Of a DNA stretch of 11,201 nt, positions 1,949 through 11,201 are shown in pieces (position 1 is the first letter of the stretch; the number at the start of each line of letters is the position of its first letter). The stretch is taken from IMG/VR virus record IMGVR_UViG_2654587569_000008; one strand, written 5' to 3'. The translations under genes were made by a program, and so were the position numbers. This DNA is from a virus (taxonomy: Duplodnaviria; Heunggongvirae; Uroviricota; Caudoviricetes). The notes below the pieces were generated by a model, which was given only the letters and a program-made list of their open reading frames with translations, had not been told where the DNA came from and ran no database searches.

Positions 1949-2097
1949 TGGTGTGAGGCGTAACGCGATGAACATAACAAAAAGCGCCCCGTTACCGGAG
2001 CGCCCTTGCGAACAATTAACCTGCTGCGAAAAAAATGGATCAGTGCAGGGGAATTATATCAACCGTGTGGCGAAGCGCCACAATTGCCGGATAACAG

Positions 2098-2127
2098 GCA
2101 AAACAAAGGCCACCCGCTACGGTGGCC
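2098..2127 (-). terminator. Rho-independent terminator for the minus-strand two-gene unit
   Basis: Perfect 7-bp GC-rich stem GGCCACC-(CGCTAC)-GGTGGCC; on the minus strand it is followed by TTTGTTTT. Lies about 80 nt beyond the stop at 2207. Confidence 0.6.
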
Positions 2128-2206
2128 CCTCGACACAAGCTACACGTTATCCCCAACGCATGAGCATCACCAACAATGCCACATTTGCGGCTGGTGGGCA
2201 ATGTGA

Positions 2207-2380
2207 TCAGTCAGATTTGGTTCGTTCCAAGGTTTGCAACGAGAGCTTTTTCCTGTGCTCTTTAAGGAATTTCTCAAGAGCAAACGAACAAGGTGCGAAT
2301 CTTTCTGATTCATGTTCTATCTTTCTGCGCCGTCTTTTCCGTGCCGGTGATAATGTTTTGGTCAATTCTTTATCGGTCAT
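2207..2380 (-). CDS. Hypothetical small highly basic protein (57 aa; alternative start at 2395)
   Basis: Second gene of the minus-strand unit. AGGA about 9 nt upstream of the ATG at 2380. Arg/Lys-rich (ARKRRRRK); no recognisable family. Confidence 0.4.
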   Translation of the reverse strand: MTDKELTKTLSPARKRRRRKIEHESERFAPCSFALEKFLKEHRKKLSLQTLERTKSD

Positions 2381-2437
2381 TGTGTTGTCCTGCATAGCAA
2401 TGCGCCGTAGTTACTCACACCACGGCGCTGGTGATGG

Positions 2438-2617
2438 TTACTCCTGCTCTTTGGCCTTGCGCCGCTGGCGGCGTTTGATCTCGCCTTGCATTGACGTAAT
2501 GATGAATTGTGATGTGCTTTCGCCTGATTCTTTCACTGATTCCATGGCGTTTACTATTTCGTGTGGTACACGAGCCTTTAGAGCTTGTGATTTTGCGTTT
2601 GTTGTACCCGTTGCCAT
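2438..2617 (-). CDS. Small putative DNA-binding regulator (ribbon-helix-helix-like pattern), candidate island repressor
   Basis: 59-aa ORF starting at an internal ATG of the listed 2438..2791 frame, with GAGGAA 7 nt upstream. KSQALKARVPHEIVNAMESVKESGESTSQFIITSM resembles the strand-helix-helix layout of CopG/Arc proteins. Divergent from the early operon with operators in between. Function is inferred, not demonstrated. Confidence 0.45.
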   Translation of the reverse strand: MATGTTNAKSQALKARVPHEIVNAMESVKESGESTSQFIITSMQGEIKRRQRRKAKEQE

Positions 2618-2678
2618 TTCTATTCCTCTGGTGGATTGGTGGGGGACAGTATACACAGAAAAAGCACAAATAAAACTC

Positions 2679-2724
2679 TTGACGTGGGCCACACCTAAAA
2701 CATATAGTGGGCCACACCTTAAAA
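2679..2724 (+). promoter_or_regulatory. Sigma70-like early promoter overlapped by two direct-repeat palindromic operators
   Basis: TTGACG (2679-2684), 18-nt spacer, TATAGT (2703-2708). Two copies of GTGGGCCACACCT(T)AAAA at 2684-2700 and 2707-2724, 23 bp apart, one between -35 and -10 and one over the start region. Core GTGG-G-CCAC is itself a palindrome. Confidence 0.45.
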
Positions 2725-2816
2725 TTATCAAGGCGCATAAATGCAAAGCCCCGCAAGTGTCGTTACCACTCGCAGGGCTTCTAACCACCAACGATAGCAG
2801 AAGTATCGAGGTAGCT

Positions 2817-3023
2817 ATGAGAAATTATACCAGACACCCGCAAGGGCGGGACTCGCACAACCTGAATAAATACATCTGGCGTTTTATCGCCCTGAGCACG
2901 GCACAACCGCGCGTGATTACCATTGAGGCCACCAGCGAACAGGAAGCACGCCAGCAATCTCCTGATGGCTGCGTGATGGTATTCGCCGCCCGTATTCGTC
3001 AGGAGGTGCGCCATGTGCAATAA
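2817..3023 (+). CDS. Hypothetical protein (68 aa), possible first gene of the early operon
   Basis: ATG with GAGGT 5-6 nt upstream; its stop overlaps the next gene's start. It is the 3' part of a long, otherwise implausible plus-strand ORF, so confidence is low. Confidence 0.3.
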   Translation: MRNYTRHPQGRDSHNLNKYIWRFIALSTAQPRVITIEATSEQEARQQSPDGCVMVFAARIRQEVRHVQ

Positions 3024-3703: not shown

Positions 3704-4003
3704 ATGAAACAGAAAAATTCTGGCTTTACTGCCAGCGGCCTCTCTCGGCCTGAAATCCGCCCCGGCGATATTTTCAAAGATAAATACGGCGGCACTGTAA
3801 CGATTAAAAGCGTGGTGGGACGGTGTGTTACTTACCGCCGTGATGGGTACGGCTATGACTGCGTGATGCCTGTTTATCAGTTCCGGCGTGATTTTTCTCT
3901 GGTACAGAACGCAACACGCGGTAAGCCCACCAGCAGGGAAAAAGCACGGGAAAATATTAAGAAAATAAAAAGCATGCTCAGCGCATCCAGAGGTAAAAAA
4001 TGA
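3704..4003 (+). CDS. Hypothetical protein (99 aa), basic C-terminus
   Basis: GGAGAA upstream of the ATG; its stop overlaps the repA start (ATGA at 4000-4003). Confidence 0.55.
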   Translation: MKQKNSGFTASGLSRPEIRPGDIFKDKYGGTVTIKSVVGRCVTYRRDGYGYDCVMPVYQFRRDFSLVQNATRGKPTSREKARENIKKIKSMLSASRGKK

Positions 4004-5406
4004 AACTGGCACCGAACGTAAAACTGTTACCGAAAGATAAACACACTGAGGCGGTTATTTTTGCGGGTGATAATGCTCACTCCTTTGCAGAACATTACAT
4101 GATTGCACAGGCCAAAAAAGCAGGCGATCCCATCCCTCCGGTTTACCTGGGCCGTTATCAGTTAAGCGAACTGGACAATTTACAGATTGTTGATGAAGGA
4201 CGATACAGAGCAAAGGTCATACGCGCCGGAAACCTGGACGATATGCAGATGCTGACCATTGCCACCAAATTGGCGATCGCAGGTGTCCGGGAAGCGCGGT
4301 TACTTTCAGAGAATTTCGAACTACTGGAGGACTGGAGCGAGCAACTACCGCGGCTTAAAGAAACCTGGGAACGCGGGGAAAGTCTGGTCATGAATGGTGG
4401 AAAGCGAAAAATCACACTTCCCATCTCATGGGGTTCTGAGGGATTCGACGCGCAGCAAAGCTACGTAATTAAGGGGCTTATTCCGGCTGAATCATTATGC
4501 AGCACCTACGGGGCCAGCGGTTCTTATAAATCGTTCCTGGCTATTTCCTGGTCGTGTCATGTTGCCACAGGTATAGCATGGGGAGGCCGCAGGGTAAGTA
4601 AGGGCGCGGTTATTTATATCGCTGGCGAAGGCAGCATGGGCGTAAAACGCCGCGTTAAGGCGTGGGAGATAACCCACGACAAGGTGGTTACAGATTTGTG
4701 CATCATTAACGCGCCTGTTTTCCCTGCATCGCCTGACTATGTGGAGCAGGTTATCAGAACTGCCGGACTTGTTAAGAGCAGAACGGGCGAAAATGTGCGG
4801 CTGATTGTGATAGACACGCTGGCCCGTTGCTTTGGTGGGAATGATGAAAATGATTCCCGTGATATGGGCGCATTTATCCAGGGGTGTGACGCGATAAAGC
4901 AGGCCACAGGGGCCACGGTGCTGGTGGTTCACCATTCCGGCAAGGATGAAACAAAGGGGGCGCGTGGTTCCAGCGCATTCCGTGCCGCACTGGATGCAGA
5001 GTACCGAATCAGCCGGGAAAATTCAGACGTTACAGCACTGGTGGCGGCGTGTACGAAGATGAAGGACGCAGAGGAGCCAAAAGAAAGCGCATACGACCTT
5101 AAAAGCGTGGAGGTGTTTACCGATACAGATGGCGAAGAGATTGTGTCCATGGTGGTGATTGACGTTCCCCGCGCCCCTGCTGAACTGGAACGCATCGAGG
5201 AGGCCGGGAACAAGACGGAAAATCACACGGCTTTATGGGGTTGTATCCGATCACGTATACAGCATGGTGATAAATGCACGATCCCGCTGCTACGTGACGA
5301 CATGAAAAAGCTGGGATATGACACAAAACACCTTAAACGATGGTTAGCAAAACTGGAAAAAGACGGCGTGATTTGCGTCGATGGGGATGATGTTCACCCA
5401 CTGTAA
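4000..5406 (+). CDS. Replication initiator/helicase, RepA-like RecA-fold ATPase (AAA_25-like)
   Basis: 468 aa. Walker A-like GASGSYKS, Walker B-like LIVIDTLARCF, a VLVVHHSGKDE motif, and a basic C-terminal tail that could be a DNA-binding domain. No primase domain recognised. Followed immediately by an iteron array. Confidence 0.85.
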   Translation: MKLAPNVKLLPKDKHTEAVIFAGDNAHSFAEHYMIAQAKKAGDPIPPVYLGRYQLSELDNLQIVDEGRYRAKVIRAGNLDDMQMLTIATKLAIAGVREARLLSENFELLEDWSEQLPRLKETWERGESLVMNGGKRKITLPISWGSEGFDAQQSYVIKGLIPAESLCSTYGASGSYKSFLAISWSCHVATGIAWGGRRVSKGAVIYIAGEGSMGVKRRVKAWEITHDKVVTDLCIINAPVFPASPDYVEQVIRTAGLVKSRTGENVRLIVIDTLARCFGGNDENDSRDMGAFIQGCDAIKQATGATVLVVHHSGKDETKGARGSSAFRAALDAEYRISRENSDVTALVAACTKMKDAEEPKESAYDLKSVEVFTDTDGEEIVSMVVIDVPRAPAELERIEEAGNKTENHTALWGCIRSRIQHGDKCTIPLLRDDMKKLGYDTKHLKRWLAKLEKDGVICVDGDDVHPL

Positions 5407-5610
5407 AAAGTGGGCGTTAAAAGTGGGAATAGTGGGTAATTTAACCGAAATTTAACAAAATCGCCCACTTTCCCACGTGTATACATCCAAAAAAGTGGGC
5501 ACTAAAAAAATACTTATGAAACAGTACGATATAAAACCACAAAATCCCAGGTGGGACGAAGTGGGAAACCATGAAAAGTGGGCAGAAAAAGTGGGCACAG
5601 GTGGGCGCAT
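5404..5610. repeat. Iteron array, putative origin of replication
   Basis: Eleven copies of the GTGGG core within about 200 bp, mostly as AAAAGTGGGC(A): nine direct (5410, 5423, 5432, 5495, 5551, 5561, 5578, 5591, 5601) and two inverted CCCAC (5464, 5472), with A-rich spacers. Directly downstream of repA. Confidence 0.6.
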
Positions 5611-5860
5611 GACAAGAAAAACCAGAGATAAGACAGCACCAAAATATAAAGCGTTAGACATGACAGAGCACGCCTTAAAGGTGGCAATCAGAACGATAGA
5701 CCGCCACGCCGGGGAAGGATACGCGAAAGCACATCCCGAACTGATAAGCGCATTCATGACCACGACGGCGGCAAATTTTGCCACGCTGACAGAGCGGGAG
5801 ATTGCCGAAGCGGAACAGGTAACAACAATCAACGTTAAAACCGGAGAGGTGGAATCATGA
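5609..5860 (+). CDS. Hypothetical protein (83 aa from the ATG at 5609; ORF open from 5477)
   Basis: AGGTGG just upstream of the ATG at 5609; the longer version would be translated across the iterons. Stop overlaps the ssb start (ATGA). Confidence 0.4.
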   Translation: MTRKTRDKTAPKYKALDMTEHALKVAIRTIDRHAGEGYAKAHPELISAFMTTTAANFATLTEREIAEAEQVTTINVKTGEVES

Positions 5861-6279
5861 CAGCACAGATAGCGGCTTACGGGCGGCTGGTGGCTGACCC
5901 GCAGTTAAAGACCACCAGCAAAGGGACACAAATGGCGATGGCGAGTATGGCAGTTCCCCTGCCGTGCAGCCAGGCAGATGACGGAACGGCGACGATGTGG
6001 TTATCTGTCCGGGCGTTTGGCAGACAGGCCGACGCACTGGCAAAACACCACAAAGGCGAACTCCTGAGCGTGGCGGGTAACATGCAGGTGAGCCAGTGGA
6101 CAGGCCAGAACGGCGAAACGCGGCAGGGCTGGCAGGTTATCGCAGACAGTGTAATCAGTGCCAGAACGGCGCGACCGGGCGGCAAAAAAGGTCAACAGGG
6201 GCAGGCTACTGACGCACTGAACAGGGCAAAACAACAGGCGGGAAATGATGATCCGTACGGGGATAACATACCGTTTTAA
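5857..6279 (+). CDS. ssb: Single-stranded DNA-binding protein (SSB)
   Basis: 140 aa. OB-fold region aligns by eye with E. coli SSB (GRLVADPQL..., W..V..FG..A......KG......G.....W....G), and the C-terminus ends DDPYGDNIPF, matching the SSB acidic tip D-D-D-I-P-F. GGAGAGGTGG RBS. Confidence 0.8.
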   Translation: MTAQIAAYGRLVADPQLKTTSKGTQMAMASMAVPLPCSQADDGTATMWLSVRAFGRQADALAKHHKGELLSVAGNMQVSQWTGQNGETRQGWQVIADSVISARTARPGGKKGQQGQATDALNRAKQQAGNDDPYGDNIPF

Positions 6280-9042: not shown

Positions 9043-9115
9043 CCGCCGCCCCGTAACGGGCCATAATTCCAGGAAGGACCCGACGACACCAGGCTATCAG
9101 AACGATGAGGGCACA

Positions 9116-9397
9116 ATGACTGAAGCCGAACTACTGGGATTAATCCGCCGCGTCGTCGGAATCAGCCAGCAGCATGACGAACAGGCCACACAGCCGGACA
9201 GCGTGACCGCTGAAAATTATGTGCGTGTTGTTGCTGAGGTGATGCGCCGTGATGGTATTGAGCTTAACGGCGTGGATATGCGCAACATACGAACAAGAGT
9301 CCTTGAGTTGCTGGCATACCGTCGCCGTTCTCAACAACGGAGGGAGAGCGCGAAAAATACTTACCAGTGGAAGAAGCCGGAACGGTTGCGGCGGTAG
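9116..9397 (+). CDS. Hypothetical protein (93 aa)
   Basis: GAGGG 5 nt upstream of the ATG. Last gene of the late module; no recognisable family. Confidence 0.45.
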   Translation: MTEAELLGLIRRVVGISQQHDEQATQPDSVTAENYVRVVAEVMRRDGIELNGVDMRNIRTRVLELLAYRRRSQQRRESAKNTYQWKKPERLRR

Positions 9398-9534
9398 ATT
9401 CCTGATATTCAGGAAAACCACGAATCTGTGGGGTTTACTGGCGCGGTTACGGCGGTGACACGCACCGAGGCAGAACGATTACCGTAAGTTAAAGTGACGG
9501 TATTCACACCAAAGGCAGAAATCAGCGGTTAACG

Positions 9535-9705
9535 TAACTGACTGATATTTTCGGGAACAGCCAACGGCTGAGGCCGGAACAACCGACTATCTTTCAGATA
9601 GTCACAAACTACGAAATTTTCGCAGTTTAATTACTCGCCAGCTTAATCGCTAACCCACTGATATTTTCGGAAACCTCGATTTGAGGAGACCGGAACGTCT
9701 ACATA
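9535..9705. repeat. Two imperfect ~50-bp direct repeats with a structure-preserving variable hairpin
   Basis: Copy 1 at 9535-9590 and copy 2 at 9651-9705 share ACTGATATTTTCGG(G/A)AAC and AG(G/A)CCGGAAC. The segment between them differs in sequence but forms a hairpin in both (CAGCC-AAC-GGCTG against CCTC-GATTT-GAGG). Confidence 0.4.
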
Positions 9706-10115
9706 GCTGCATCACCGTAATGATGATTTGGCCCACCAGCAACCATAACGATTTCCGTTACAGTTGATGTGCTTTTTTGCTGGTAAGGAGTAACCTGTTG
9801 ATTGTTCCAGAATCCCCCATTGGGGAAAACTGGAAAACTCACCCTCCAGATTCTGAATGGTGAAAATGACCATTCAGCTTCATGTGTCCATTTTCCCGAA
9901 ACAGGAAAACCCGTTTTCGGGAGAAGGTGCGATTATGTTCGTCATACCTGTTCCGTTGAAACGGAATACCCCATTCCGGCGTAGCTGATGGACGCACAGC
10001 CACATACAACTAACTTTGCGCGTCAGTATTGCTGACCCGCAAACAACAACCAGGCAACAGAACGTTACCCGATTCAGCCGTTCGGTGGCATCACTGGACC
10101 CACTTTCCTGATGCG

Positions 10116-10715: not shown

Positions 10716-11201
10716 TCAGAACGTCCAGACTACACCCGCCTGAGTTGTGCTGCTTTCTTCACAGGAGAAACGACTATCGATACCGAGCGTCAGGCCCGTC
10801 AATGTTTGCTCAAAGCCAGCTCCCGCATCAGTGTTCACGCTGTTGCGGCTGTTAATTGCCGAACTCCACATCGCCGTATCGTAATTAACGCCTTTTACGC
10901 TACCAAGACGCCCACGCACGGTGTCCAGTTCTGCATCAAATACCAGCGGTTGTGCTGCCGCCATATTCAGCACATCCGTGGTTGAAGGGGGCATTTGTAC
11001 GCGATTCTCTGCGAGACTCCAGCTATGGTTGCCATTATCCAGCAAGGTATATTCATACGTACTGATATCAACAACGCTTCCGGCATTGCCCAACGTAAAT
11101 GCCGCATCACCGCGCCCTCCTTTAATCGTGGGATCATTCGCCGCGCCATAAACCTGTAGCACTCCATTATTGATCGTAGTCTGATTTACCGCGCCACCCA
11201 T
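10716..11201 (-). CDS. 3' part of a gene running off the window: autotransporter-like passenger/junction fragment, apparently without the beta-barrel
   Basis: N-terminus lies beyond 11201. Passenger-like repeats (TINNGVLQVYGAAN...), a junction-like motif (TVRGRLGSV...AMWSS...GAGFEQTLTGLTLGIDSRF), then a stop after ...GVVWTF, only about 20 residues into what would be a ~250-aa barrel. Family assignment is pattern-based and tentative. Confidence 0.45.
   Translation of the reverse strand: MGGAVNQTTINNGVLQVYGAANDPTIKGGRGDAAFTLGNAGSVVDISTYEYTLLDNGNHSWSLAENRVQMPPSTTDVLNMAAAQPLVFDAELDTVRGRLGSVKGVNYDTAMWSSAINSRNSVNTDAGAGFEQTLTGLTLGIDSRFSCEESSTTQAGVVWTF

Follow-up and report, generated by a model that had tools for sequence, protein, structure and literature searches.

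An iteron array directly downstream of repA as predicted replication origin of an EcCICFT073-type phage-inducible chromosomal island

The window analysed here, the 11,201-nucleotide virus record IMGVR_UViG_2654587569_000008 (Caudoviricetes), carries a Gram-negative phage-inducible chromosomal island (PICI) of the EcCICFT073 type. Its repA gene codes for an initiator/helicase, and the spacer that follows repA (5407-5608) is filled by short GTGGG repeats. We are confident that this spacer is the island's replication origin, oriPICI, with the short iterons as predicted binding sites of the C-terminal winged-helix domain of RepA. The origin reading is supported because the island is syntenic with published E. 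coli PICIs, because the published origin layout matches and because the iteron core co-varies with the C-terminal domain of RepA. By analogy with the family, the island would replicate autonomously after induction. The layout is ordinary, and the spacer adds one more allele to a type of origin that has been published before. New are the conserved fine architecture and two points judged from sequences and models: iteron specificity is assigned to the winged helix at the C-terminus of RepA, apparently by a one-residue code, and the motor is predicted to have a RecA fold and not to be of the AAA+ kind. Phage satellites of this class are widespread in E. coli; the analysis gives the probable location of their cis-acting origin and the RepA domain by which it is most likely recognised.

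Anatomy of the repeat array

GTGGG occurs eleven times between 5404 and 5610, nine times on the plus strand (5410, 5423, 5432, 5495, 5551, 5561, 5578, 5591 and 5601) and twice on the minus strand (5464 and 5472), with all cores inside 5410-5605. Elsewhere in the window there are 30 copies in about 11 kb, which corresponds to 0.56 expected copies per 207 bp (Poisson P ~3e-11); the maximum in any other 207-bp stretch was 4. The eleven cores within about 200 bp of the repA stop codon reported in the original prediction were thus recovered, while its statement that most of them have the form AAAAGTGGGC was too strong. AAAAGTGGGC is the best, extended form of the iteron; it is exact in 4 of the 11 copies and differs by one mismatch in 2 more. 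A twelfth GTGGG on the minus strand at 5397 lies within the final repA codons (His-Pro) and was left out of the count because RepA of other alleles ends in different residues there.

The conserved iteron unit is not longer than 10 nt, with start-to-start spacings of 13, 9, 10, 17, 13 and 10 bp. The first iteron overlaps the end of repA in that the stop codon TAA (5404-5406) continues into AAAAGTGGGC at 5406-5415, and from there the array occupies the whole 202-bp spacer up to ATG 5609. Two iteron sets flank an AT-rich region (Table 1), six copies at 5406-5500 and five copies at 5548-5606. The inverted copies sit inside the left set and are not mirrored across the AT-rich region. This is the only conserved iteron cluster of the window; two minor groups of GTGGG (1440-1543 and 2639-2707) are missing from the island of strain HNSQ2209 (L001), the ori of which is identical.

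The array is wholly intergenic because the next gene, which encodes a protein of 83 amino acids, starts at ATG 5609. The profile phrog_1231 aligns to this protein from ATG 5609 onward over positions 1-83 of 83, and PGAP annotates the homologues of the gene in the 252-nt form. An ATG was aligned to M1 of the 83-aa protein in 100 of 113 loci, and in 105 of the 113 the spacer was 199-203 nt long. Upstream of ATG 5609 the length of open frame varies among the loci from 3 to 396 nt and is just 3 nt in 23 of them. An earlier suspicion that part of a small open reading frame (ORF) starting at GTG 5477 is non-coding was borne out, as that start is unsupported, whereas the supposed overlap of the gene with the array fell away.

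The last iteron, GGTGGG at 5600-5605, lies 3 nt before the ATG of the 83-aa gene, where a Shine-Dalgarno sequence would be expected. Alleles that have a different core show this overlap as well (ggtgagcaATG, ggtggggaATG). The last sequence of the array seems to double as iteron and ribosome-binding site.

Several scans were negative. The promoter scan found no sigma-70-like promoter in 5250-5750, and in the same interval there was no terminator on the coding strand and just one weak terminator-like hairpin on the minus strand. The Rfam scan of the whole window gave no family match. Consensus sequences of the DnaA box and of integration host factor (IHF) sites were not found in 5381-5620 with up to one mismatch allowed. 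A literature search for the string AAGTGGGC returned irrelevant matches only.

Table 1. Coordinates of repA, the predicted origin and the downstream gene in the window
Feature	Position	Strand	Remarks
repA, 468-aa initiator/helicase of three parts	4000-5406	+	Pfam, PGAP names, structure matches
RepA N-terminal domain, aa 1 to ~130	4000-4390	+	pLDDT (predicted local distance difference test) ~90
RepA C-terminal winged-helix domain, aa ~396-468	5185-5403	+	predicted fold
Left direct iterons 1-3: AAAAGTGGGC, AAAAGTGGGA, AATAGTGGGT	5406-5437	+	sites positionally conserved in relatives
AT-rich stretch of 25 nt after the left direct iterons	between 5437 and 5463		
Two inverted iterons: GCCCACTTT (reverse complement of AAAGTGGGC) and CCCAC	5463-5476	-	inverted repeats
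Palindromic TGTATACA centre between convergent iterons 5463-5476 (-) and 5491-5500 (+)	5478-5485		
Iteron 6, AAAAGTGGGC, right arm of the convergent pair	5491-5500	+	
Iteron-free AT-rich spacer, candidate DNA-unwinding region	5501-5547		GC 29% over 5500-5550 vs 49% in the window
Right set of five direct iterons, cores 5551, 5561, 5578, 5591, 5601	5548-5606	+	
83-aa gene, outside the origin	5609-5860	+	starts at ATG 5609, not at GTG 5477

Conservation of the spacer and alleles of the iteron

Loci encoding relatives of RepA were collected from genomes, metagenomes and viral contigs, 240 in total. A repeat array starting at the repA stop codon was present in nearly all of them. Relatives from Enterobacterales with a RepA of 50-63% identity nearly always carry the array right after the stop, with the same architecture and a different core. 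For the architecture, 144 distinct homologous spacers were counted, each holding 6 cores or more. The conserved order starts with direct iterons, followed by a convergent pair that surrounds TGTATAYA, then an AT-rich iteron-free gap of about 50 bp and finally 4-5 direct iterons. A convergent -/+ iteron pair flanking a TGTATAYA-like centre was found in 141 of the 144 spacers, and the largest iteron-free gap had a median of 56 bp, beginning about 88 nt past the stop codon. The fine architecture of the spacer is conserved, a point which we add to the published description of such origins.

The iteron core itself varies between lineages. GTGGGC is the core of the present allele. GTGAGG was found in EcCI042, EcCIRM12579 and Xenorhabdus, GTGGGGA in Pantoea and many E. 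coli, TGGGGGA in Serratia, Pectobacterium and Morganella, and GTGCGGC or GTGCGCG in Kosakonia, Enterobacter, Kluyvera and Salmonella-like loci; a further variant among the lineages is GTGGGGGC. When alleles with 97%-identical RepA were aligned, 11 of 11 repeat sites fell into the same columns and the sequence between the repeats was conserved, e.g. gtatacatcc and aaaaatacttatgaaaca, while all cores had changed together from GTGGG to GTGAG or GTGGGG. The gap sequence 5501-5547 is likewise kept between alleles whose iterons differ. The ori allele of the window was present in 23 of 5,426 complete E. coli genomes; the island in NZ_CP016546.1 has an ori of 100% identity.

Some loci from other genera (L018, L023, L048, L065, L069, L072, L075-L078 and L080) showed few or no recognisable iterons within 320 nt downstream of repA. 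Decay of the island, truncation of the array or another arrangement of the origin may account for this.

Domain structure of RepA

The middle part of RepA is a helicase core of the AAA_25 RecA-fold family (Pfam PF13481, E 3.6e-42, about aa 146-320 and beyond). PGAP names its homologues 'helicase RepA family protein'. The nearest solved structure by sequence is RSF1010 RepA (1g8y, E 4.8e-5, aa 155-320), and Foldseek gave matches to RadA/Rad51 and T7 gp4. NCBIfam gave weak RadA/RadB matches to the core only, and Pfam found no primase domain in RepA. As judged by these similarities the motor has a RecA fold, SF4-like and unlike that of the SF3/SF6 (AAA+) Reps of Staphylococcus aureus pathogenicity islands (SaPIs), and RepA is a predicted hexameric helicase.

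The C-terminal 74 amino acids gave only a sub-threshold MCM5_C match in Pfam (E 0.18). The AlphaFold (AF2) model of aa 396-468 has a pLDDT of 87.8 and the topology helix-helix-helix-strand-strand. Its best Foldseek matches in the PDB were all winged helix-turn-helix (wHTH) domains, i.e. DtxR, IclR, LexA, MarR and the winged helix of MCM8; the match to DtxR had a TMq of 0.66, a root-mean-square deviation of 2.0 A and a probability of 1.0. In the model the predicted recognition helix is helix 3 (aa 445-454), with K443-H444 (5326-5331) at its N-cap.

The N-terminal domain was without a Pfam match when the N-terminal 140 amino acids were searched. The domain shares 45% identity with the N-terminus of the EcCICFT073 Rep (L083, 9241-9630), a primase-type protein that is unrelated in its other parts. 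In other genera it is swapped for different N-termini, and the homologues have about 350, 455 or 700 amino acids. The N-terminal domain appears to be a modular part without a link to the type of iteron.

Co-variation of the iterons with the C-terminal domain of RepA

The class of iteron followed the C-terminal domain of RepA in 201 of 201 loci, and it followed this domain only. No such link was seen for the other parts of RepA (N-terminal domain and helicase core) or for DUF4222, SSB and the 83-aa protein. L088 and L090 are instructive. Compared with RepA of the window, their N-terminal domains are 98-100% and their helicase cores 99.6% identical; the C-terminal domains are 85% and 78% identical, respectively, and the iterons are GTGAG in L088 and GTGGGGA in L090. 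L186 is the converse case with a core of just 68% identity, a C-terminal domain of 93% identity and GTGGGC iterons as in the window. When the helicase cores were clustered at 95% identity or more, 7 of 24 clusters held more than one iteron class.

The C-terminal domain carries the conserved motif K443-x-[FLM]-x-R-W-L-x-K, in which K443 is invariant. The residue after K443 predicted base 4 of GTG[N]G in all 201 loci without exception. Histidine goes with G in 90 loci, asparagine with A in 71, lysine with G in 27 (the TGGGGG type), and serine or glycine with C in 13. Contacts of Asn with A and of Lys or His with G are common between proteins and bases. Most likely, the residue after K443 (H444 in the window) reads base 4 of the iteron, presumably by direct contact.

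Tentatively, we extend this to RepA-type PICI initiators in general. These may be helicases with a RecA fold (SF4-like) that load themselves by means of the fused winged helix, in which a single N-cap residue of the recognition helix (H444 here) reads base 4, and the C-terminal domain and ori may be exchanged as a cassette; we lean slightly against this combined proposal holding in all its parts. If it is true, near-identical islands acquire orthogonal replicon specificities, and the specificity of an origin can be predicted from sequence and re-programmed. A true one-residue code would also explain how co-resident islands avoid cross-talk between their replicons, and it would make available a series of compact rep-ori modules that are orthogonal to each other.

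Comparison with known origins

In Gram-negative PICIs the origin follows immediately 3' of the initiator gene, and in it an AT-rich region lies between two sets of iterons (Fillol-Salom et al. 2018, PMC6092414). A rep-ori segment of EcCICFT073 maintains a temperature-sensitive plasmid; a rep mutant yielded no colonies and an ori deletion significantly fewer (PMC6092414). EcCI042, EcCIRM12579 and EcCICFT073 are all listed as PICIs in Table S1 of that paper. The island of the window shares with these elements the order int, alpA-like gene, icd-like gene, DUF4222, rep, ori, 83-aa gene, ssb, capsid E, decoration D and terS. EcCI042 and EcCIRM12579 also have the RepA type of initiator (63% identity) and a spacer of 200 bp that agrees in architecture and in part of its sequence. 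Yet the cores differ, being GTGGGC here, GTGAGG in EcCI042 and EcCIRM12579 and GGTAGA(C/T) in EcCICFT073. The Rep of EcCICFT073 is different as well, a primase-type protein of 584 amino acids that has just the first ~125 in common with RepA (45% identity). In silico, the spacer shows the hallmarks of a PICI origin: the 3' position, eleven short iterons (the type has 6-12 penta- to octanucleotides) in two sets around an AT-rich region and in both orientations, and a helicase with a predicted winged helix. PICIs in general have an integrase, a unidirectional operon, partial phage morphogenesis genes and a size of about 10-12 kb, and the island of the window fits this description. The synteny, the published layout and the co-variation together support the original prediction that the repeats are iterons of the initiator in a PICI-type origin.

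In the model for SaPIs, the C-terminal winged-helix domain of the Rep helicase reads penta- or hexanucleotide iterons and Rep loads itself (summarised in Qiao et al. 2022, PMC9371898). SaPI iterons number 6-12 and lie immediately downstream of rep with an AT-rich centre (PMC9371898). The present array resembles SaPI origins in having both iteron orientations, an AT-rich centre and a position directly 3' of rep. It differs in that the left set contains its inverted iterons in a convergent pair centred on TGTATACA, while the right set is all direct. The motors differ, too: SaPI Reps are 3'-5' helicases of SF3/SF6 (AAA+), whereas RepA has the RecA-fold AAA_25 core like RSF1010 RepA and T7 gp4, from which a 5'-3' polarity would be predicted.

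RSF1010 (IncQ) RepA is similar in its AAA_25 RecA-fold core of a hexameric helicase. It is not known to have an origin-binding domain, and the oriV iterons are bound by a separate protein, RepC. By contrast, the predicted winged-helix domain is fused to the helicase in the PICI protein. Classical plasmid iteron origins (Rep_3/pi/TrfA type: pPS10, R6K, RK2, F and P1) also have repeated initiator sites beside an AT-rich region with the initiator gene adjacent. In these plasmids the iterons measure 17-22 bp and are spaced in helical phase, the initiator is a non-helicase Rep, and DnaA boxes are commonly present. The island has cores of 5-10 nt with irregular spacing (9-17 bp) and a helicase as initiator; neither phased iterons of 17-22 bp nor a non-helicase WH1-WH2 Rep with DnaA boxes were found.

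Alternative readings of the array

Some points weigh against the spacer being an origin bound by the C-terminal domain of RepA. The family's one functional test was done with the unrelated primase-type Rep of EcCICFT073 and not with the RecA-fold RepA type. No clear array was seen in 16 of 80 homologous loci from other genera. The codons of the C-terminal domain lie less than 100 bp from the array, and the co-variation may in part be linkage within one recombination cassette. Linkage alone, however, leaves the concerted change of about ten dispersed sites unexplained, which argues for selection for matching one binding protein. On the structural side, the Foldseek E-values of the 73-aa domain are weak (0.065), although the probability was 1.0 and the top matches were all wHTH. 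The model of the helicase core is poor, and for much of aa 130-396 its pLDDT does not reach 50. For that reason Foldseek with the full-length model, which returned mostly RecA-fold and spurious periplasmic-binding-protein matches, was uninformative on the terminal domains. Finally, the array that follows the initiator gene in phage P4 is crr and not the start site.

The P4 case leads to the alternative that survives best, though we consider it unlikely: the array would bind RepA as a cis-acting control region, similar to P4 crr or to 'handcuffing' in copy control, with initiation elsewhere in the island. P4 is a satellite with an initiator, short iterons and one array (crr) directly 3' of the initiator gene. 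The P4 alpha protein combines helicase activity with a C-terminal DNA-binding domain. According to its record, P4 is bipartite: the annotated rep_origin is at 9086-9809, some 4.7 kb from the crr at 4291-4590 that directly follows the alpha gene. The island has a single cluster, which speaks against a start site elsewhere, and the minor GTGGG groups are not conserved in strain HNSQ2209. Moreover, the array contains the parts expected of a start site, i.e. the convergent pair, the TGTATACA centre and the AT-rich gap, and deletion of the equivalent region of EcCICFT073 lowered replication (PMC6092414).

P4 is further set apart by its alpha protein, a primase-helicase of 777 amino acids compared with a RepA without primase domain, and by its octameric iterons TGTTCAC(C/A) of the TGTTCACC type, which are different from GTGGG iterons. 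A second conserved cluster and a primase-helicase initiator were not found in the island. Where the layout had been described as standard for P4 and PICI replication modules alike, the PICI part holds and the P4 part is only partly right. One copy of TGTTCACC, the type I iteron octamer of P4 ori and crr, is located at 5390-5397 in the last repA codons and abuts the array. It is probably a coincidence at chance level, with about 0.3 copies expected in a window of such size; the octamer was not searched for elsewhere in the window.

Still less probable is that the repeats are operators for a regulator other than RepA, acting on the 83-aa gene, ssb and the later operon. The position of the array just upstream of a gene, with its last copy overlapping the ribosome-binding position, would fit such a role. 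Yet 5250-5750 is devoid of a sigma-70-like promoter and of a terminator on the coding strand, the core tracks the C-terminal domain of RepA and not DUF4222, the 83-aa protein or SSB, and the 83-aa protein remains 74% identical in EcCICFT073 although the iterons there (GGTAGA) are unrelated. That the cluster arose by chance, by composition or as coding part of the longer, mechanically called GTG-initiated ORF 5477-5860 can practically be dismissed in view of the Poisson probability, the positional conservation of the repeats in 144 distinct spacers, the variable length of the upstream frame and the start of both the PHROG profile and the PGAP genes at ATG 5609.

Proposed course of initiation

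We favor the view that the spacer is the origin and RepA its initiator. For the course of events we infer binding of RepA, the melting site, self-loading and the polarity of the helicase, beside the array anatomy, conservation, co-variation and predicted fold, which were computed here. Upon induction of the island RepA would be made, and its C-terminal winged-helix domains would bind both iteron sets. The duplex would then open at the convergent pair around TGTATACA (5463-5500) and in the adjacent AT-rich segment 5501-5547. RepA hexamers might load themselves at the opened site without a separate loader. The SSB of the island would coat the strands, while primase and polymerase of the host would copy the excised circle.

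Host island and flanking genes

The window encodes a tyrosine integrase (1-1242), DUF4222, RepA, SSB (5857-6279), a lambda-type major capsid protein E, decoration protein D and terS. The gene order is that of the published E. coli PICIs EcCICFT073, EcCIRM12579 and EcCI042, and the same island is found between gcd and hpt in strain HNSQ2209. The element is an EcCICFT073-type Gram-negative PICI. A capsid-forming PICI (cf-PICI) was considered and rejected; portal, protease and large terminase were not detected in the island and the gene order is that of EcCICFT073.

Although Rep and iterons are unrelated in EcCICFT073 (L083 11284-11538), the 83-aa protein keeps 74% identity between the islands, and its gene always precedes ssb. 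It may be a replication accessory protein.

A sigma-70-like promoter was seen at 2679-2719 of the window (TTGACG, 18 nt, TATAGT; 10 of 12 matches). It is overlapped by two copies of GTGGGCCACACCT, 23 bp apart, that look like operators, and a terminator-like hairpin is present at 2569-2589. Promoter and hairpin both lie within the mechanically called ORF 1953-3023, of which only the last ~83 amino acids match the PHROG 'transcriptional repressor'. This ORF probably comprises two genes and a regulatory region. At the right end of the window an ORF on the minus strand (10716-11201) runs out of the sequence and partially matches PHROG 21473 (positions 645-728 of 947). Probably this gene is truncated or flanking and has no relation to the replication module.

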